This document shows, in pieces, positions 2,652 to 57,645 of a stretch of 64,000 nt of DNA. Location: NCBI GenBank assembly GCA_023396915.1, contig JAEWUV010000002.1:86087-150086 (forward strand), written 5' to 3'. Both the position numbers and the translations under genes were made by a program. This DNA is from Candidatus Parcubacteria bacterium (GTDB taxonomy: Bacteria; Patescibacteriota; Microgenomatia; UBA12405). The notes under the pieces are model-generated. The model saw only the letters and a program-made list of their open reading frames with translations, did no database searches and was not told the DNA's origin. Position 1 is the stretch's first letter, and each line of letters opens with the position of its first letter.

Positions 2652-3236
2652 TTATTTTATTAGAAAAATAAAATCAAAAATTGGTTTAATAAAATTAATC
2701 ATAAAAAGGGGGAACTGAATCTGTTTAATTAAAACTCCTATTATTAGACCAATAATTATTCCTCCAAGAACATCAATCGGATAATGGAGCCCTAATATAA
2801 TTCTGGCTAAGATTAAAGGTAGGGCAATAATTAAAAACCAAAAAGGGCTAATTAAAATACCGGTATGAAGAATCAAGATGAAAAAGAAAACTGCCTTGAT
2901 GGCATGCCCGGAAGGGAAACTCCCTTTTTTATACCAGGATTTTAAAAGACCATTGGGTAATACATTGTTGTTTAGATGAAGCGGACGTTTCCAAAGTGAT
3001 TTAGTTTTTAGAACTTTTTCAACGATTTCACTAATAATAGTGGCAAAAAACAGTTGCCAAAAAATATTCGTATCTTGCTTGATTAAAAGATAGGAAATGA
3101 AAAAGAAAAAGACCCAAATGATATAGTTAATAAGGATTAAGAATTGATTACCGTATTTAGTTTGAGAAACATATTTGAAAAGATCTTTTTTTGGTTGCCA
3201 GAAAAAAATTTTTTTTAAAAGAGTATTTGATTTCAT
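2652..3236 (-). CDS. PAP2-family (type 2 phosphatidic acid phosphatase) membrane phosphatase
   Basis: All three PAP2 motifs are present: KxxxxxxRP (KSLWKRP), PSGH (FPSGHA), and SRxxxxxHxxxD (RIILGLHYPID). Multiple transmembrane helices. Confidence 0.6.
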   Translation of the reverse strand: MKSNTLLKKIFFWQPKKDLFKYVSQTKYGNQFLILINYIIWVFFFFISYLLIKQDTNIFWQLFFATIISEIVEKVLKTKSLWKRPLHLNNNVLPNGLLKSWYKKGSFPSGHAIKAVFFFILILHTGILISPFWFLIIALPLILARIILGLHYPIDVLGGIIIGLIIGVLIKQIQFPLFMINFIKPIFDFIFLIK

Positions 3237-3240
3237 AAAA

Positions 3241-4290
3241 TTAAAATAAAAGTTTGGCTAATTTGAGAATGCCTTGGCTCCAGGGAACCCGATGAGAAAT
3301 CCCCTTCTGACCCTCAAATTCTGAAAGATGATTAATATACCATTTATAATTTTCAATCAAAGCCTGTTGATTGGAATATTTTGGTTTAAAATTTAATATT
3401 TTTTGAGCTTTATTTATAGAAACAAAAGAGTCAGTAGCGGCTGTTTCATAAACCCAGGCATAAAGGGGAGATAAATGGAGAGCTTCTAAAACTTTTAATA
3501 AAAAAATAGCTGGAGCGGCGGGAATGGTAACTATTTTTTTACCAAAGCCAGCATAATCTAAGACTGATTGATAATCCTGTCGCATGGTTTTAAATTCTTT
3601 GGCTCCGATATTAAAAACATCATTAACTTTTGATTTACTTAAAGTCATAGTCGACCAAATGGCATCACAAAGGTCTTTAACGGCCAGAAGTTGATATCGA
3701 TTTTTACCATCACCTAAAAGAGGAAATCCGTGTCCGTCTTTGGCCCAGTCATAGAATAAGGCAAAGACCCCCAATCTTTCTGGACCAACAAATGATTTTG
3801 GGCGAAGAATCGAAACACATAAACCTTTTTTTCTAAAATCGCGGCAAAATTTTTCGGCTTTAATTTTTGATTCACCATAAGGGCCAACACCAACAACTTT
3901 GTCAGTTTCGTAAATCGGGTGATGTTTCGGGACCCCATAAACGGCAGTTGAAGAAATATAGACAACCCGTTTTACCTTATTTTCTAAAGCTGATTGTAAA
4001 ACATTTCTAGTACCGTCAACTTCGGTTGAAATAATATCTTCTTTTGAATACAACGGTAAAGCGGCGGCGAAGTGAAGAACAACATCGGCACCTTTCATAG
4101 CCTTGGTTAATGTTTTTTTATCACGAATATCGGCAATAAAACTGGTAATTTTTTTCTTCTCGGGATAATTAAATTCAGCAATATCATAGTTAATAACTTT
4201 TTGATTTTTTTTGAGTAAAAAGCGAACCATATTGATTCCTAAAAATCCTGATCCACCGGTAATGAAAATAGTTTGAGTTTTGTTGTTCAT
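3241..4290 (-). CDS. NAD-dependent epimerase/dehydratase (extended SDR family)
   Basis: N-terminal Rossmann motif IFITGGSGFLG. Catalytic YxxxK motif in YGESKIKAE. Length of about 350 aa fits the extended SDR family. Confidence 0.75.
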   Translation of the reverse strand: MNNKTQTIFITGGSGFLGINMVRFLLKKNQKVINYDIAEFNYPEKKKITSFIADIRDKKTLTKAMKGADVVLHFAAALPLYSKEDIISTEVDGTRNVLQSALENKVKRVVYISSTAVYGVPKHHPIYETDKVVGVGPYGESKIKAEKFCRDFRKKGLCVSILRPKSFVGPERLGVFALFYDWAKDGHGFPLLGDGKNRYQLLAVKDLCDAIWSTMTLSKSKVNDVFNIGAKEFKTMRQDYQSVLDYAGFGKKIVTIPAAPAIFLLKVLEALHLSPLYAWVYETAATDSFVSINKAQKILNFKPKYSNQQALIENYKWYINHLSEFEGQKGISHRVPWSQGILKLAKLLF

Positions 4291-7567: not shown

Positions 7568-8486
7568 AGACGATAGTAATCATCATCAAACCCCAAAGAA
7601 GAAGAGATAAAAGTAAAGGAATATCGGTGGCAACAACCCGTTCAGGACGCTCACCTTCTTGCATTTCGAAAATAATCTGACCATAACGCATAATGCCAAA
7701 GATTACTGGGATTAAAGTAATCATGTACCATTTTCTGTATAAGGCATTGGGGAAATTTTGAGACATAAATGAATGGATGATTCCATTAAACGAGATTGGT
7801 TCTTCCAAAAAAGTAAACATAGCATAAGCGATGAGAGTGCAGACAGCAAACATGGTGGTATAAAAATTAAGAAGATTTTTACCGTAACCGGCGAGGGCAC
7901 TTCTGGTGATGATACCGGTATTCCCGAGTTCAGTTCTCCTTTTACCGCTAGCCAAAAATAAAGAAAGGAAGACAACGGCTAGCATAATCCAAATCGGCAA
8001 ATGATAGCCGGTGGCAATTTCTCCGGCGTAGGTACGAAGAATAAAGAAAAAGGCAATTCCAATAATATCGATAATTGCCTTTTTCTTGAGAAAGAGAGAA
8101 TAGGTATATTGTAGGATGATAAAAACAAAAGAGAGCCAGAAAAATCCAGTATTAATAAATACGGCAATAGAAAGGCCGGTAAATAAAAGGATAAAAGCAA
8201 TTAGAATAGCAAATGGTTGGGAGATATCTCCGCGGGCAAGAGGACGACTTTTTTTGACAGGATGAAGCCTGTCTTTGTCAACGTCCATGACATCATTAAT
8301 TAAATAAGAAGATGAAGAAAGAAGACAAAAAACTATAAAAGCCAAAAGAGTTTTTGAAAATAAATTAATATCAAAGAGTTGTCCGTTTAAAATTAAGGCA
8401 GCAAAAATACCTAAATTTTTAATCCATTGAGCCGGACGTAAAGCCTCAAAAATAAATTTTATATTTGGTTTTGTTTCTTTGGTCAT
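7557..8486 (-). CDS. UbiA-family prenyltransferase, decaprenyl-phosphate phosphoribosyltransferase-like
   Basis: NDVMDVDKDRLHPVKKSRPLARG fits the UbiA Asp-rich motif with the HPxK...RP signature. About 8 transmembrane helices. Confidence 0.55.
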   Translation of the reverse strand: MTKETKPNIKFIFEALRPAQWIKNLGIFAALILNGQLFDINLFSKTLLAFIVFCLLSSSSYLINDVMDVDKDRLHPVKKSRPLARGDISQPFAILIAFILLFTGLSIAVFINTGFFWLSFVFIILQYTYSLFLKKKAIIDIIGIAFFFILRTYAGEIATGYHLPIWIMLAVVFLSLFLASGKRRTELGNTGIITRSALAGYGKNLLNFYTTMFAVCTLIAYAMFTFLEEPISFNGIIHSFMSQNFPNALYRKWYMITLIPVIFGIMRYGQIIFEMQEGERPERVVATDIPLLLSLLLWGLMMITIVYVI

Positions 8487-8494
8487 GTGTGATG

Positions 8495-9727
8495 TTATAT
8501 TTTTTTATAAAAGATAAAGGCAAATATAATTAGAGCTAAGGATAGCACCATAATAATACTAGTGGGGCCGGTGTTGCCTGTTTTGGGAACACCTGAAGAA
8601 GTGCTGGGAACACTGGTAGGGATACTGGTTGGCGTAGGGGTTGAGGTTGGTTTTATGGTAGGAGTAGCTGACGAAGAAGCAGTAAAAGATGTATTTGATT
8701 CTGCAGCTAAAACTATAAATTTTTTACTAATAGTATTATTATTTTCGTCAGTTAATGTGACAGTGTGTTCGCCGGGGCTTAGGTCTTGGGGCACTTCCCA
8801 ATCCCAGCTCCCATCTTCGTTTGTGGTTACAGAATCATTTATAGCCACTGGGGAATGAACTTCAATTTTAAGCTCGGATCCCGGTTGGGCAGTGCCAAAA
8901 AATTCAGGTCGCTTGGTAGACAAAGTTTCATTGTCACTAGGATTAGAAATTGTCAGAGGAGTATCAGTAGTAAAGTTATATTCATTATCCAATAAATTAG
9001 TTTGGGGTAATTCAATTTCAACAACCGGGCTTGGGGCAGAAAAATTGTTTTGTCCAATAATAATATCAGAGACTGGATTATTATGATTAGTATTGGAAAT
9101 AACTTGAGTTTGGGTTTGGTCATGGTTAATAACAACGATATTTTCTTCAGTATTTGAAGGGGGAGAAAAATAATCTGTTAATGATTCATTAAAACTGGTA
9201 GCGAGTGGAATATTCCACTCGCCAGAAGAAGTTACTAAGGATGAAAGAGGAGATGCTCCGGCAACCGAAAAATAAACAATAGCTTCGGTGGTTGGGGTTT
9301 TGTCTTGATTATAAATTCGTCCCCAAGCTAAGTTGGAGCTAGGCATTTGATTATTTGGTTTTTTGGCAGTTTTGAAATTAAAATTATCGGAAGAATATTT
9401 TTCCCCGTCACTGATAACGGAAAAAGTATAAACCTGAAATTCTTTTAAGGAAATTATTTCAAAATAATGAATCTTGCCTTTACCTTTATTATTCTCTATA
9501 GTTTGTCCAGAAAGGGAGATTGTTGAAAGACAGTCGGCTGAAGTAGTAAAAGAAATACTGGCAGAATTGTTGGTGATATTGGTTATTTGAAGGTTTATAG
9601 GGTCACAACTGCCACCAGCCCGGCTTGAGGTATTAGTCCGACGAGTGGCCAAAGAAATACCAAAATATAAGGTAAGTAAGAGTAAAATTAGACCAAAGAT
9701 AGTTGGTATTTTTTTCTCCTTTTTCAT
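8495..9727 (-). CDS. Secreted surface protein with a C-terminal sortase-type sorting signal (VPKTG, then a TM segment, then a basic tail)
   Basis: N-terminal signal peptide. A Thr/Pro/Ser-rich stalk precedes VPKTGNTGPTSIIMVLSLALIIFAFIFYKKI. Confidence 0.45.
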   Translation of the reverse strand: MKKEKKIPTIFGLILLLLTLYFGISLATRRTNTSSRAGGSCDPINLQITNITNNSASISFTTSADCLSTISLSGQTIENNKGKGKIHYFEIISLKEFQVYTFSVISDGEKYSSDNFNFKTAKKPNNQMPSSNLAWGRIYNQDKTPTTEAIVYFSVAGASPLSSLVTSSGEWNIPLATSFNESLTDYFSPPSNTEENIVVINHDQTQTQVISNTNHNNPVSDIIIGQNNFSAPSPVVEIELPQTNLLDNEYNFTTDTPLTISNPSDNETLSTKRPEFFGTAQPGSELKIEVHSPVAINDSVTTNEDGSWDWEVPQDLSPGEHTVTLTDENNNTISKKFIVLAAESNTSFTASSSATPTIKPTSTPTPTSIPTSVPSTSSGVPKTGNTGPTSIIMVLSLALIIFAFIFYKKI

Positions 9728-10005
9728 AGTTTATTAACTTTACCACTAGGGGTTGAATTAACTTCGTTATTGTTTGGGTAAAAATTAATAGAATTAGATT
9801 CGATATTTTCCGGCCTTTTTTCAATCTCTTCTATAATGTCTAAATCAAGATTTGGATTAATGGGAGTAAGTAATTTATTTGAATCAACTTCTTTGACTGG
9901 ATTGACTAAATTAAAATAACTTTTTTGAACTATACTAGAAAAAATAGTCAAAAAACTAAAGATAGAGATAAAGATAAAATAAACTGATAGTTTCTTTTTA
10001 TTCAT
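9724..10005 (-). CDS. Small signal-anchored protein, function unknown
   Basis: 93 aa with an N-terminal hydrophobic segment. Translationally coupled to its neighbours. Confidence 0.3.
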   Translation of the reverse strand: MNKKKLSVYFIFISIFSFLTIFSSIVQKSYFNLVNPVKEVDSNKLLTPINPNLDLDIIEEIEKRPENIESNSINFYPNNNEVNSTPSGKVNKL

Positions 10006-21899: not shown

Positions 21900-23000
21900 T
21901 TATCTTCGGGAGATTTTGTGTTTGAAAGTTACGGGGGTTAAAAAGGATAATATCTCTCCAACCCAAAAATAATTAGAAAGTAAACTAATATCACAACCAT
22001 ATTTTTTGAGCATTAAATAATCGATAGAAAAACTTAACAAAGAAACTGTAAAAGGAATTAGAGTTGTAAATTTAGTTGAATATCTGACAAAGAAAAAGTT
22101 AATAACCAAAGCGATGATAAATAATATTGGCAACCAACAACCGTTGTGAATGTCAGTTGTACCTAAAATTTGGCCGGAAGGAGTGGAAATATTTTCGTTA
22201 ATATCAGTTTTGGGAAGCTGAAAATTAATAGTTGGGACTGGTAGATTAAAACGCTTAGTTTCTGAATAAGAAAAATTTTTTTTGGCTTCGTTGGTAGTAT
22301 TTGTAGTAAAAGTGTTTGTATTGGTGTTATTACTGGAATTATTAGTGTTATTGGTAGTAGATGAACTGTTTTTGTTGATGTTAGTAACAGTAATAGTTTT
22401 TCTGGAAATATTTCCAGCCGGGTCAGTGGCGATAAATTCAAAAGAACCATTTTGGGTAAAAGTGTAGGAGGAAAAATTTAAAACACCTTCATTAGTTGAA
22501 GCAACGACGGTGATATTTTGATCTGTCGGATTTAGGTTATATGGTTTTATGGTAATAACTGGAGGAGTAGTGTCAACAACGGTAATAACATTGGTTAACG
22601 TCAGCGATTTGGCAATAGCCCCACCGGTGCAATTTTCATTAGAAAAAGCTTTAAGAGTAATGTTGTAAGTCCCCTCGTCTGACGGCGAAAGAAAATCAAA
22701 AATATTTTGGTGAAAATCACTAGAAAAAAAATTAGCAGTATCAACACAAACAGAATTTTGACCGGAGAAAGTGTATTGGGTAGAAGACCAATTGGCAGTG
22801 TCGTTGGAGTCTGAATTATCAAACCAAGTAGAAACATTAATAGTGGCCTTAATACTTTGTTGGGGTTCGACAGTAACAGAAAAATTATTATCAAACATAG
22901 CGCCGGTTACCCAAGTGCTGGCAAAAGCGGGGGTTTTTAGGGGTAGAAAAAATAGGGCAATAAAAACACAAAACCAGTTTCTAAAAATACGAAAGCTCAT
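21900..23000 (-). CDS. Secreted/membrane protein with an Asn/Thr-rich low-complexity region and C-terminal TM segments
   Basis: Signal peptide, an NTNNSSNNTNTNTFTTNTTN tract, and hydrophobic C-terminal helices. Confidence 0.35.
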   Translation of the reverse strand: MSFRIFRNWFCVFIALFFLPLKTPAFASTWVTGAMFDNNFSVTVEPQQSIKATINVSTWFDNSDSNDTANWSSTQYTFSGQNSVCVDTANFFSSDFHQNIFDFLSPSDEGTYNITLKAFSNENCTGGAIAKSLTLTNVITVVDTTPPVITIKPYNLNPTDQNITVVASTNEGVLNFSSYTFTQNGSFEFIATDPAGNISRKTITVTNINKNSSSTTNNTNNSSNNTNTNTFTTNTTNEAKKNFSYSETKRFNLPVPTINFQLPKTDINENISTPSGQILGTTDIHNGCWLPILFIIALVINFFFVRYSTKFTTLIPFTVSLLSFSIDYLMLKKYGCDISLLSNYFWVGEILSFLTPVTFKHKISRR

Positions 23001-23256
23001 TTGGGCAGGGCAAAAACAAAAACTTTTTTAAGTATAGAGACTTTAAAAAAAGATTACAATTGGCTGAAAAATACTTAATATTTACTAATGGTATGAGGGT
23101 GACTAGCATCAGGTTTCGCTTGTTTCGCTTCTTGAGAGACTTTTGTTTGTTCTGGAGTCACAGGAGGACGACTTGGATAATTTTTATCTCCATGATTAAA
23201 AGGAGGGGTTAAATGGATAGGCTTGGTGCTTTCTATTGACATATTTTATTTAAAAA

Positions 23257-23583
23257 CTAATCAAAAGTATAAATTATTTTTTCAAAATTTATGATTTTGT
23301 TATTTTTGTCCACTTTAATCCCCTCTTTTTTATAGAGTTTGTCGCGCCATTTGTTGTGTTTTGGATCAAACCAAATTTTGCCGTTGCTGTAAACAATTCG
23401 ATGAAAGGGAATTTTATCAACATCAGGAGATTTGGATAAAATAGTGGTGATCATCCGCGACATCATAGGATGTCCGCCAGCCGCCGCACATAAAAATCCA
23501 TAAGTGGTTACCTTGCCCTCTGGAATTTGCAGTGCTAATTCCCAGACTTTTTGGGTGAAAGAAGAAGGAGATTTTTGAGCCAT
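23257..23583 (-). CDS. Alkyltransferase-like protein (ATL): MGMT DNA-binding domain with the active-site Cys replaced (PFHRIV)
   Basis: TQKVWELALQIPEGKVTTYGFL and ...KIPFHRIV align to MGMT C-terminal motifs (PCHRV). The nucleophilic Cys is Phe, and the 108-aa length is typical of ATLs. Confidence 0.6.
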   Translation of the reverse strand: MAQKSPSSFTQKVWELALQIPEGKVTTYGFLCAAAGGHPMMSRMITTILSKSPDVDKIPFHRIVYSNGKIWFDPKHNKWRDKLYKKEGIKVDKNNKIINFEKIIYTFD

Positions 23584-23584
23584 T

Positions 23585-24145
23585 TTAAATTTTAAAATAT
23601 TTATCTTTCTCCCAATTTATAACATTATTTTTAATATATTGTTTAATGGTGGAATACTGTTTTTGGTCTTTGACAATAATATCGTGATAACGAGGTTGCC
23701 AAGCAAAAAAGACGGTTTTAGGATTGATTTGACGGGTAACAGCTGACTTGAACTGTTTTATAACTAAAGGAATAGTTTGAGTAGAACGAATAGCTATTCG
23801 GTGATAAAAATAATTATTGTATCTTTTAGTTAGAGACGCATCATGATGCGTCTCTACAGGGTTAAATGAAGTTGATTCAAGATTTAAAAGTAGGTGGATA
23901 TGATTAGGCATAATTACGAATTCACGAATGAAAATATTTTTGAAATGTTTAAGGATGTCAGTAAGACATTGATTAGCGATTAGTCCCATTTTGGATAATT
24001 CCATTTGTTTATTAATTATTTTGCCAAAGAAATTATTGTGTTGATAAGTACAAATGGTGATGAAGTAAATGCCTGAAGTTGAATAATTGTGATTTTTTAG
24101 ACGAGGAGAAGATAGGCGATATTTGGAGGCAAATTTATTTTCCAC
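23585..24145 (-). CDS. RAYT (REP-associated tyrosine transposase) / IS200-like Y1 HUH transposase family protein, single-domain
   Basis: HUH motif (VIMPNHIHLLL). C-terminal AWQPRYHDIIVKD...IKQYIKNN matches the catalytic Tyr region of the IS200/RAYT family. 186 aa. Confidence 0.65.
   Translation of the reverse strand: MENKFASKYRLSSPRLKNHNYSTSGIYFITICTYQHNNFFGKIINKQMELSKMGLIANQCLTDILKHFKNIFIREFVIMPNHIHLLLNLESTSFNPVETHHDASLTKRYNNYFYHRIAIRSTQTIPLVIKQFKSAVTRQINPKTVFFAWQPRYHDIIVKDQKQYSTIKQYIKNNVINWEKDKYFKI
23831..23856. repeat. Perfect 26-bp palindrome tagagacgcatcatgatgcgtctcta inside the transposase CDS
   Basis: The reverse complement is identical to the forward sequence. It is in-frame and encodes ETHHDASL within 23585..24145. 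Confidence 0.9.
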
Positions 24146-25307
24146 TTTTCTTTTCTATAAAATACTTCTTACCTTTTAATTTATCCGGCAATAGGGATTC
24201 TTTGGAATACATTTCGTAACCTTTGCCATAACCAACTTCTTTCATCAATTTGGTGGGGGCGTTGCGAAGACTCATTGGTATTGGCAGATTGCCGTGAAGT
24301 TGGACATCGGCAAGAGCGGACATATAAGCATCATAAGCAGAACGATTTTTGGGAGATTTAGCCAGATAGACTACTCCATGAGCCAAAGTTTCTCGACATT
24401 CTGGCAGGCCTAAAAGTTCAACACTTTTAAAAACTTCATTGGCCAACATTAAGGCAGAGGAATTAGCAATACCAATATCTTCGGAGGCAAAAACCACCAT
24501 ACGACGGGCAATAAATTTGGGATCTTCGCCACTTTCAATCATTCGAGCTAGATAATAAAGAGCGGCATCGACATTGCTGGCTCGCATACTTTTTATAAAT
24601 GCCGAAATTGTGTTGTAGTGTTCCTCGCCTTTTTTGTCGAAACGCAAAAATTTATTTTGAAGAGTATTGATTAGATTTTCTTTGGTTAAAGAGTTGTAAA
24701 GAGTAAAAGAATTATCAATCATGGTCAGAGCCTGACGAGCATCGCCATTGGCCATTTTGATAAGCCAGTCTTTGGCGTCTTTGGTAATTTTTGTTTTTAA
24801 GACTTTGGCAGCCCGAGAAATAACTTCATCAATTTCATCGTCGGTTAATTCATTTAAAATGAATACCCGGCAACGAGAAAGAAGTGGAGAAATGACCTCA
24901 AAACTGGGGTTTTCGGTGGTGGCACCAATGAGAGTTAGGACGCCGGATTCGACGTAAGGAAGTAGAAAATCCTGTTGGGCTTTGTTGAAACGATGAATTT
25001 CGTCTAAAAATAATATTTTTTTGTAAAGACCAGGATTGGTAGTATCTCCAACAATTTTTTTGATATCAGCTTTGCCGGCAGAAACTGCTGAAAGTTCGTG
25101 GATTTCAGCGCCAGTTTCTTTGGCAATAATTTTGGCTAAAGTAGTTTTGCCGACTCCGGGAGGACCCCAAAAAATCATGGAAAAAATTTGGTGATTTTCG
25201 ATGGCTAGACGAAGTGGTTTACCGGGACCAACTAAATGTGTTTGGCCAATAAATTCGTCTAGATTTTTGGGGCGGAGTAATGAGGCTAAGGGTTGAGTTA
25301 GTGTCAT
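24135..25307 (-). CDS. rarA: Replication-associated recombination protein A (AAA+ ATPase RarA/MgsA)
   Basis: Walker [10 protein letters not shown]. Conserved RarA blocks [15 protein letters not shown] and a C-terminal MgsA domain. Confidence 0.85.
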
Positions 25308-25380
25308 AAATTAACTTTGGGTAATATTCGGGTCTTGGACTCAGTATAAACCTGATGGAAAGAATGGTCAATCGGAAAGA

Positions 25381-26070
25381 TTAGAGATGTTTGATAATTA
25401 GCAAAGGGACGTAAACATCTTTTTGGCAAGATAGGACAAATTCAACAGCATCAACGACGGATTCTACCGGTAAAGCAATAGAGTGGTCGATAGGGATTTC
25501 TTTTTTGAAATTGGTATCCATAAGACCGGGACACAAGCTGATTACTTTGATGCCATAGGGTGAAAGGTCAAGTTGAAGAGATTCAGTAAAACCCTGACAA
25601 GCATATTTAGAAGCATGATAAACAGTATTAAGAGCTTTGGGATAATGACCGGCGGTAGAGTTTACATTTAAAATAGTCCCCTCTTTTTGTTTTTTCATAT
25701 GAGGAATGACGTATTTACACAGATTCATTTGACCAACCACATTAACGTCAATTACTTGTTTGAATTTAACCGGATCATTATCGTCAATTTCACCCTCGAT
25801 ATAGATACCGGCATTATTGATTAAATAATCAATTTTTTGGTATTTATCGATAATAAAATCAACGGCTTTTTTGACTGACTCGTGATTGGCAACATCACAG
25901 AAGTGATAATCACAATTAAATTCTTTGGCGGTGGCAGCGGCTGCAGTTTCGTCAAAATCGAGGATAATAATTTGATAATCTTTGGAAAGGCGAGCAACAA
26001 TGGCACGACCTAAACCATTGGCCCCGCCAGTAATACATATAATTTTTTTATCCATGACTGATTTTAACAA
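25381..26070 (-). CDS. Short-chain dehydrogenase/reductase (classical SDR)
   Basis: TGGANGLGRAI cofactor motif, NNAG, and the YHASKYA catalytic YxxxK motif. Confidence 0.7.
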   Translation of the reverse strand: MLKSVMDKKIICITGGANGLGRAIVARLSKDYQIIILDFDETAAAATAKEFNCDYHFCDVANHESVKKAVDFIIDKYQKIDYLINNAGIYIEGEIDDNDPVKFKQVIDVNVVGQMNLCKYVIPHMKKQKEGTILNVNSTAGHYPKALNTVYHASKYACQGFTESLQLDLSPYGIKVISLCPGLMDTNFKKEIPIDHSIALPVESVVDAVEFVLSCQKDVYVPLLIIKHL

Positions 26071-57159: not shown

Positions 57160-57645
57160 CTAAATCAATTGATAAATTTGTTTTAGGGCTGATTTTGCTC
57201 TAATTAAATAGATTAATTCAAGAATAAAAAGAAGACCAATTATCTTGACATCTCCTTCGGAATAAATCATGTTTATCAAATTTATAAAAATAATAAAAAT
57301 AATTGTGGTAAGTAAAATATTTAAATCTTTCATCTTTAGCCCAGTAACCTTTTTGGCTTTCTTACCGAATTTAATTAAAATAAGACTGATTGTTATTAAG
57401 TAGATGCAATCAATAGCCATAAAACCAATACTGTTACCCTCTTCTGTACCTGAAAATACAACATATAACGTGCTAAAAAATAAGTTAAACCAACCTAGAG
57501 CTTCTGCTGTTGATCCGGCATTTTTAATTTTTTTATAGCTTGGATTATTTTCATCTAATGTTTTTTCTTTTGTAATTTTTTCACCACAAAAATTACAAAA
57601 TTTAATACCATTTTTTATTTCTTTTTTACAATTTGGACAAATCAT
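57160..57645 (-). CDS. Zinc-ribbon N-terminal domain membrane protein
   Basis: MICPNCKKEIKNGIKFCNFCG followed by TM helices. Confidence 0.4.
   Translation of the reverse strand: MICPNCKKEIKNGIKFCNFCGEKITKEKTLDENNPSYKKIKNAGSTAEALGWFNLFFSTLYVVFSGTEEGNSIGFMAIDCIYLITISLILIKFGKKAKKVTGLKMKDLNILLTTIIFIIFINLINMIYSEGDVKIIGLLFILELIYLIRAKSALKQIYQLI

Follow-up and report, generated by a model that had tools for sequence, protein, structure and literature searches.

Why does a gene for a putative RAYT transposase carry a perfect palindrome within its own reading frame? In the window (the whole 64-kb stretch of DNA analyzed here), the palindrome tagagacgcatcatgatgcgtctcta occupies positions 23831 to 23856 and has no strand of its own; as read in the window, its sequence is TAGAGACGCATCATGATGCGTCTCTA. 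As the initial annotation stated, it is perfect over 26 bp, with two 13-nt arms that are 100% complementary and no spacer, and it stops at this length because the adjoining bases are t (23830) and c (23857). Base composition gives an expectation of 0.003 perfect 13+13 palindromes per 64 kb, and a 13-nt arm was reached in 1 of 200 first-order Markov simulations of the window, in agreement with the earlier view that such a palindrome is vanishingly unlikely by chance in 64 kb. Its G+C content is 46%, compared with 34% for the window. When single stranded, the palindrome is predicted to form a hairpin with an 11-bp stem and a loop of 4 nt. For DNA, the predicted free energy is −11.1 kcal/mol (z = −6.1); for RNA, it is −16.4 kcal/mol (z = −5.3), and 0 of 200 shuffled sequences equaled either value.

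The best explanation, to which we assign a probability of roughly 85%, is that the palindrome is a GTAG-tagged REP of the double-foot kind, situated in frame within the disordered loop of its own TnpA_REP subclass 2.4 gene. The coding strand reads 5′-GTAG AGACGCATCA TGATGCGTCT CTAA-3′, in which the GTAG foot is followed by a perfect hairpin. Because the element starts with a full GTAG (G at 23857) and ends with CTAA, the complete REP spans positions 23830 to 23857 on the minus strand. Its 5′ foot agrees with the published double-foot form (GT[AG]G at the 5′ end and C[TC]AC at the 3′ end), whereas its 3′ foot is CTAA instead of the canonical CTAC. Of the three alternatives in the initial annotation, two are best supported in combination: that a small palindromic element was inserted in frame and that the hairpin is of a kind recognized by the encoded enzyme. 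In-gene REPs of this kind are a published hallmark of subclass 2.4 (PMC6006769).

The host gene (tnpA_REP, or RAYT; 23585 to 24145, minus strand) has a GTG start and encodes a subclass 2.4-like protein of 186 amino acids with an HUH-Y1 fold. The HUH motif, H82-I83-H84, lies inside MPNHIHLLL (23894 to 23902, minus strand), W149-Q150 is encoded at 23696 to 23701 (minus strand), and the predicted catalytic tyrosine is Y170 of YIKNNV (23636 to 23638, minus strand). H82, H84, W149, Q150, and Y170 are invariant in an alignment of 61 homologs. A profile built from these homologs had a single sequence match in the PDB, E. coli TnpA_REP (4ER8), and aligned with it in both the HUH and the WQ...Y blocks; W149-Q150 corresponds to W94-Q95 of 4ER8, and Y170 aligns with its YIYINP. 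In the E. coli enzyme, the residues equivalent to W149-Q150 contact the GTAG guide (PMC6006769). The HUH motif, the conserved tyrosine, and the Y1 fold place the protein in the HUH/Y1 transposase superfamily. With Pfam Y1_Tnp (PF01797), for which the cutoff is 23 bits, it scored 30.4, and only the C-terminal half aligned, since the loop interrupts the alignment. NCBIfam NF047646 (REP_Tyr_transpos, an equivalog model) aligned with residues 19 to 175 and gave 48 bits, short of the 80 set as its cutoff. A look-up of the exact protein in public assemblies gave no record.

The palindrome falls within the coding sequence, between the HUH motif and the conserved tyrosine, as had been annotated. Its codons, GTA GAG ACG CAT CAT GAT GCG TCT CTA, specify V97-ETHHDAS-L105, so that the 26-bp palindrome encodes (V)ETHHDASL, residues 97 to 105. 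An AlphaFold model of the 186-aa protein (mean pLDDT, 79) places a loop (residues 90 to 123) between the strand that carries the HUH motif (residues 82 to 89) and a helix (residues 124 to 139). The pLDDT is below 50 at residues 95 to 106, which include the REP-encoded peptide, and again at residues 115 to 121. Foldseek searches with this model returned 4ER8_A as the best match (E value, 1e-6), followed by IS200/IS605 transposases, and the fold matches at an E value of about 1e-6 were 4ER8, 2XM3, 2VJV, and 2A6M. H84 and W149 lie 65 residues apart, whereas in 4ER8 the gap between the HuH and WQ blocks of the alignment is about 30 residues. The loop after the HUH motif is hypervariable in length in the 61-homolog protein alignment, in which it holds one to three modules of the type VETxxxASL, (C/G)RDVxxxVST, or ETPxxASL.

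The gene is tightly packed between its neighbors. Upstream, rarA/mgsA, encoding an AAA+ ATPase (24135 to 25307, minus strand), overlaps the start of the RAYT open reading frame with its last 11 nt. Downstream, a gene for an ATL-like protein whose sole domain is the MGMT DNA-binding domain (with the motif PFHRIV; 23257 to 23583, minus strand) starts 1 nt past the RAYT stop codon. Because rarA overlaps by 11 nt and the ATL-like gene is 1 nt away, a flanking REP would have no space on either side, and none was found around the RAYT gene; a REPtron layout is therefore lacking in the 64-kb window. A second copy of the palindrome was not found in these 64 kb when up to 3 mismatches were tolerated on AGAGACGC-N8-GCGTCTCT, and the 9-nt half-site does not occur in the window beyond the palindrome itself. 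The gene order SDR-RarA-RAYT-...-ATL is common to the window and two related loci (L162 and L163), adjacency of RarA and RAYT is also seen at L164, and the contig of P0003 has the order RAYT-GIY-YIG-ATL. Other close homologs (L159, L160, L166, and L167) are located in other gene contexts.

Three sets of observations on homologs bear on the identity of the palindrome: its recurrence, its base pairing, and its constancy among close relatives. For the first, 80 genomic loci were sampled, with one genome per species, from Patescibacteria, Bacteroidota, Ignavibacteriota, Calditrichota, Planctomycetota, Proteobacteria, Cyanobacteria, Chloroflexota, and Chlorobiota, and the region of each gene from HUH to WQ was scanned for hairpins. 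A palindrome of the same family, recognized by a single fixed pattern, was present in the same loop in 58 of the 75 homologous genes examined, which represent eight or more phyla; 50 of these 58 genes carried one copy, 7 carried two, and 1 carried three. The remaining 17 of the 75 homologs had no such in-gene palindrome. The element lies 11 to 54 residues past the HUH motif, at a distance that varies among homologs, and both feet are present in most of the wider family.

Second, base pairing is retained where sequence is not. The outer stem, GTAG(A/G)GAC...GTC(T/C)CTAC, is constant across homologs, and the inner 12 to 13 nt vary by lineage yet stay self-complementary (GCGCCATGGCGC, GTTGCATGCAAC, GCAAAATTTTGC, AAGGCATGCCTT, GCGATTAATCGC, and GCACGGCCGTGC). 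Among 42 distinct 28-nt in-gene copies, both sides had changed in 10 of 14 pairs, and the number of cells with both sides changed was 109, compared with 26.6 in shuffled data, with 0 of 500 shuffles reaching 109. In the same 42 copies, 93% of cells were paired, compared with 30 to 50% when the partner column was slid; selection of these copies by a hairpin scan inflates the paired percentage and leaves the diversity of compensated pair types unaffected. The elements use two reading frames, V-E-T (46 copies) and x-R-D...V-S-T (16 copies). The third frame is never used (0 copies), because GTAG there yields a TAG stop codon, and a copy survives in the other two.

The initial annotation proposed that the palindrome would be an isolated coincidence if orthologs encoded the same residues with nonpalindromic DNA. 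This condition was not borne out: in close homologs, the shared residues come from identical palindromic DNA, and in distant homologs, the residues differ and the DNA is still palindromic.

Third, among close relatives, the in-gene copy is constant at the nucleotide level. Eight homologs were picked by protein similarity (62 to 77% identity), namely, those of the window and of loci L159, L160, L162, and L164 to L167. The 27 nt GTAGAGACGCATCATGATGCGTCTCTA were identical in all eight, including agreement in 252 of 252 pairwise comparisons of third codon positions, whereas third positions elsewhere in the gene agreed in 52% of comparisons, or 60% at identical residues. The 5′ GTAG was invariant, and the base after CTA was A, T, or C (CTAC, CTAT, or CTAA). 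The eight proteins can also be aligned through the loop residues on either side of the element, NxVETHHDASLxK(R/K)Y. Since the element is identical in homologs whose silent sites have diverged, it is maintained as DNA or RNA, and this maintenance reflects selection for recognition or recopying from other copies rather than a decaying passenger.

Copies of the element are also found outside the gene. The 10-kb flanks of the sampled loci contained 72 occurrences of the same motif outside the RAYT homologs, most often less than 100 nt from the start or stop of the homolog, with scattered arrays at L010, L018, L048, L055, L065, L073, and L074. Both in-gene and external copies were present at 27 loci; at 23 of these, some external copy had an inner stem differing from the in-gene one by no more than 2 nt, and at 14 of the 27 the inner stems were identical. 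The layout of a REPtron is seen in several relatives (L103, L157, L074, L010, and L162), and L103 is a complete one, with upstream, in-gene, and downstream copies. The arrangement at related loci is thus that of a REPtron with an extra copy within the gene, and the element belongs to a GTAG-tagged REP family that varies together with the genes of this RAYT clade and occurs both flanking and inside them.

The exact 22-nt core of the window element, GAGACGCATCATGATGCGTCTC, is represented once in the 64-kb window and dispersed in a metagenome collection, where 84 copies were found on 78 contigs, nearly all with GTA before and TAC after the core. Fifteen of these copies lie within RAYT homologs, 6 are adjacent to one, and the other 63 are remote from any RAYT homolog. 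Roughly half of the 63 are intergenic, and others lie in frame in long open reading frames as the peptide (V)ETHHDASL. Judged by eye from their sequences, these open reading frames would encode LeuRS, NAD-ligase (LigA), PheS, PheT, DnaX, IF-2, UvrC, MiaA, Dus, ribosomal protein L1, and ThrRS. The putative hosts on these low-G+C metagenome contigs include essential genes (those for LeuRS, LigA, PheS/T, DnaX, IF-2, and UvrC).

The closest published description is the classification of TnpA_Y1 proteins by Quentin et al. (2018, BMC Genomics 19:475; PMC6006769), in which subclass 2.4 corresponds to RAYT group 4 of Bertels et al. (2017). Members of this subclass occur in Cyanobacteria, Bacteroidetes, and various other phyla, have a mean length of 194 amino acids and the motifs NH[IFV]H, WQ, and YIxNNP, and carry a highly variable insertion between β3 and αC. 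Their REPs are long, with a “double foot” (5′ GT[AG]G and 3′ C[TC]AC), and are inserted in tnpA_REP between HuH and Y without disruption of the frame (PMC6006769). The window protein (186 amino acids) matches in NHIH, WQ, and YIKNNV (5 of 6 positions of YIxNNP), in its variable β3-αC insertion, and in its in-frame REP between HuH and the tyrosine. This REP is also of a sequence class (GTAGAGAC...GTCTCTAC) that appears in Table S1 of Quentin et al., where GTAGAGACAGGGCATTGCCCTGTCTCTAC is included (PMC6006769). The differences are a host of the Patescibacteria/CPR type, the lack of flanking REPs, a gene that abuts its neighbors, and the 3′ foot CTAA. The window protein therefore fits subclass 2.4 at the motif level, an assignment based on motifs and the in-gene REP and not on the HMMs of those authors.

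Comparison with the REPtron of E. coli (4ER8; PMC3479197, PMC3333891, and PMC8266576) is informative for function. The two systems share a single-domain HUH/Tyr fold, a W-Q region, and GTAG at the 5′ foot of the hairpin, which by analogy may also be part of the substrate here. The two proteins are only 13% identical, however. The stem of an E. coli REP is bulged and the elements lie outside genes, in contrast to the perfect stem within the gene in the window, and E. coli TnpA_REP lacks the insertion of ∼35 amino acids that carries the REP in the window protein. Binding and cleavage of single-stranded REPs and the role of GTAG were described by Corneloup et al. (2021) for enzymes of groups 2 and 3 only, in systems from E. 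coli, S. maltophilia, and Marinomonas (PMC8266576).

Two further systems share features with the window element. The searched part of Di Nocera et al. (2013; PMC3733652) defines GTAG-tagged REPs, REPtrons, and intragenic REPs. As described there, intragenic REPs and Rickettsia palindromic elements (RPEs) resemble the window REP in being small palindromic repeats in frame in functional genes, notably those for replication, repair, and tRNA synthetases, and RPEs differ in their tag, which is CGTC rather than GTAG; the searched text makes no mention of REPs inside the RAYT gene itself. IS200/IS605 elements (TnpA_IS200; 2VJV and 2XM3) share the Y1 HUH fold, and recognition of a single-stranded DNA hairpin with a 5′ guide tetranucleotide may by analogy extend to the window protein. 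The window gene differs from them in having no subterminal flanking hairpins and no tnpB, in having the hairpin inside the open reading frame, and in its synteny with rarA, which is conserved in relatives. A mobile unit of the IS200/IS605 type was ruled out by the absence of terminal hairpins and by the conserved synteny.

By analogy with the studied TnpA_REP enzymes of groups 2 and 3, the encoded HUH/Tyr enzyme would bind the single-stranded hairpin, use the GTAG foot as a guide, and cut and rejoin DNA beside the hairpin. Such cutting and rejoining may spread REP copies, one of which would have landed in a tolerant loop of the enzyme's own gene and could survive only in the two frames free of TAG. 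The suggestion in the initial annotation that the hairpin is of a kind recognized by the encoded single-stranded DNA transposase is supported at the level of REP class, and hairpin recognition by the window protein itself is expected from the same analogy. With no flanking REPs, the in-gene copy is the sole visible copy in the 64 kb.

What the in-gene copy does for its host, if anything, is less clear than what it is. It may be a neutral passenger, i.e., a REP that landed in a permissive loop, has no role, and persists through recent or repeated insertion. Quentin et al. considered that insertion in a peripheral loop probably has little effect on activity (PMC6006769), and the predicted disorder of the loop, its variation in length, copy number, and position, the existence of REP-less homologs, and the in-frame insertion of REPs in many other proteins (see also PMC3733652) are all consistent with their view. 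Vertical inheritance of a passenger predicts silent changes, however, and none were seen in 27 nt of eight homologs, three of which (those of the window, L162, and L164) share the adjacency of RarA and RAYT. Because the loop residues on either side align, it is unlikely that the identical element was inserted recently and independently at the same codon position in each of the eight. Absence of any role is thus weakened by nucleotide-level conservation, and we hold it as a possible, rather doubtful account of the persistence of the REP.

Alternatively, the in-gene hairpin may be a selected cis element that is kept base identical, either as an autoregulatory site or as a protected master copy. 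If it is autoregulatory, the REP would be bound by the protein on the transcript that encodes it or on the gene while this is transiently single stranded; if it is a master copy, enzyme and substrate would stay genetically linked and be coinherited, and CPR genomes that are reduced, like this one, may, under either form of selection, retain that copy only. Autoregulation of translation through an mRNA structure was the third alternative in the initial annotation, and the evidence speaks neither for nor against it. The silent positions frozen in proteins of 62 to 77% identity from different samples, against ∼40% divergence elsewhere, point in this direction, as do the invariance of GTAG on the sense strand while the opposite foot ends in A, T, or C and the stability of the predicted RNA hairpin. 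A copy is present in most homologs and is kept without flanking REPs under conserved synteny in the window and at L164. Against selection for a role in this gene are the variable position of the element in the loop, a copy number of 0 to 3, the 17 homologs without it, and the presence of identical elements in unrelated genes and intergenic DNA, which means that conservation may simply mirror recognition by the enzyme anywhere. The constancy of the element may thus fit both a role specific to the in-gene copy and a general constraint on any REP that the enzyme recognizes, and we consider a selected in-gene site unlikely on present evidence.

Selection on the peptide (VETHHDASL and similar sequences), with the palindromic DNA as a by-product, is very improbable. 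The peptide is identical in eight homologs, but every silent position is fixed as well, including those of ACG, GCG, and CTA, and one DNA core is read in two frames as unrelated peptides (VET...SL and xRD...VST). Moreover, inner residues vary freely with base pairing retained, the segment is predicted to be disordered, and the same DNA and peptide occur in the putative LeuRS, LigA, PheS, and other proteins. The use of two frames and the identity at silent sites rule out a protein-level motif.

Coincidence, an intrinsic terminator, or a structured RNA of a known family would each account for the existence of a stem and nothing further, and all three are ruled out with near certainty by the expectation of 0.003 per window together with recurrence in most homologs, by the lack of a T-run or terminator-like site within positions 23200 to 24400, and by the lack of any Rfam family at an E value of ≤1.

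Since Quentin et al. reported REP insertions in tnpA_REP genes of subclass 2.4 in 2018, the in-gene REP is a phenomenon already described, and the case alone matters little. What is new is an example from the Patescibacteria (CPR) without flanking REPs and the full nucleotide conservation of 27 nt in eight homologs. The in-frame occurrence of this REP in putative essential genes on low-G+C metagenome contigs likewise extends the 2018 account slightly. The main text of Quentin et al. contains no CPR names (PMC6006769), and a search of the literature for REPs in the Candidate Phyla Radiation gave one incidental match. Conservation at every silent position is not predicted by the published view of a harmless insertion in a peripheral loop, and it prompts one to ask whether RAYTs depend on an in-gene REP. 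The closest homologs of the window protein are labeled Candidatus Shapirobacteria, and the JGI name is “REP element-mobilizing transposase RayT.”

The core of the window's REP, the GTAG-tagged palindromic hairpin element found in frame inside the RAYT (REP-associated transposase) gene, is not confined to transposase genes. In metagenome loci, the peptide (V)ETHHDASL, encoded by exactly this core, occurs in frame within housekeeping proteins (L084, L086, L093, L094, L097, L098, L102, L104, L110, L112, L119, L120, L122, L123, L133, L140, L142, L150, L154, and L156). Judged by eye from their sequences, we take the host proteins to include LeuRS (four times), NAD-dependent DNA ligase (four times), PheS, PheT, DnaX, IF-2, UvrC, MiaA, Dus, ribosomal protein L1, and ThrRS. 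L133 and L154 also contain a second REP-type peptide of a different variant. The pattern resembles that of intragenic REPs and RPEs; a limited literature search found no description of in-frame REPs in housekeeping proteins of the Candidate Phyla Radiation. Most contigs with the core in housekeeping genes have low G+C, as do the majority of those bearing the core, but the identical 22-nt core is also present on a few high-G+C contigs (L082, L114, and L152; G+C, 0.56 to 0.60), which suggests that unrelated hosts share the same REP variant.

Some RAYT homologs contain two in-gene REPs, including those of L004, L025, L027, L037, L068, L070, and L079. In L070 (5337 to 5400), the two pair as one hairpin of 27 pairs with an 8-nt loop, an arrangement similar to a REPIN or BIME, except that the L070 pair sits inside an ORF. 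In the related locus L162/L163, the contig that encodes the first RAYT also encodes a second, paralogous one, which has a REP variant of its own (2895 to 3519 and 9941 to 9964) with the inner stem GTAGCGCGCTAC and the peptide CRDVARYVST. The in-gene REP of the first RAYT there is the window's variant. The GTAGCGCGCTAC variant lies inside the paralog, at the paralog's stop codon, and a short way upstream of the first RAYT as well. Two enzyme/REP pairs thus coexist on this contig, with their REPs cross-placed.

The window and several relatives share the gene order SDR, RarA/MgsA, RAYT, (GIY-YIG), and MGMT-domain protein (window, 23257 to 26070; L162/L163, 8053 to 11832; L164, 1832 to 3561). This conservation suggests that the RAYT is vertically inherited at a single locus, set among DNA repair genes. 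Other close RAYT homologs are housed at unrelated loci.

The MGMT-domain protein (23257 to 23583, minus strand; 108 aa) has the MGMT DNA-binding domain (PF01035) as its sole domain. The methyltransferase active-site motif is PCHR, whereas this protein has IPFHRIV, so that Phe replaces the acceptor Cys. The protein probably serves as an alkyltransferase-like (ATL) damage sensor rather than as an active methyltransferase.

Three other sites in the window hold perfect inverted repeats that have no relation to the REP family: AAGAAAAAGGCAATT / AATTGCCTTTTTCTT (8044 to 8087; 15-nt arms, 14 nt apart), GCGAGTGGAATATTCCACTCGC (9201 to 9222; 11+11), and TTTTGTAATTTTT...AAAAATTACAAAA (57568 to 57600; 13-bp stem, 7-nt loop). 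A 366-aa ORF (21900 to 23000, minus strand) has no Pfam match; it has an apparent signal sequence at its N terminus, an Asn/Thr/Ser-rich low-complexity tract, and hydrophobic segments at its C-terminal end. Its counterpart position in L162 is occupied by a 2257-aa SpaA/CLIPPER-type surface protein.
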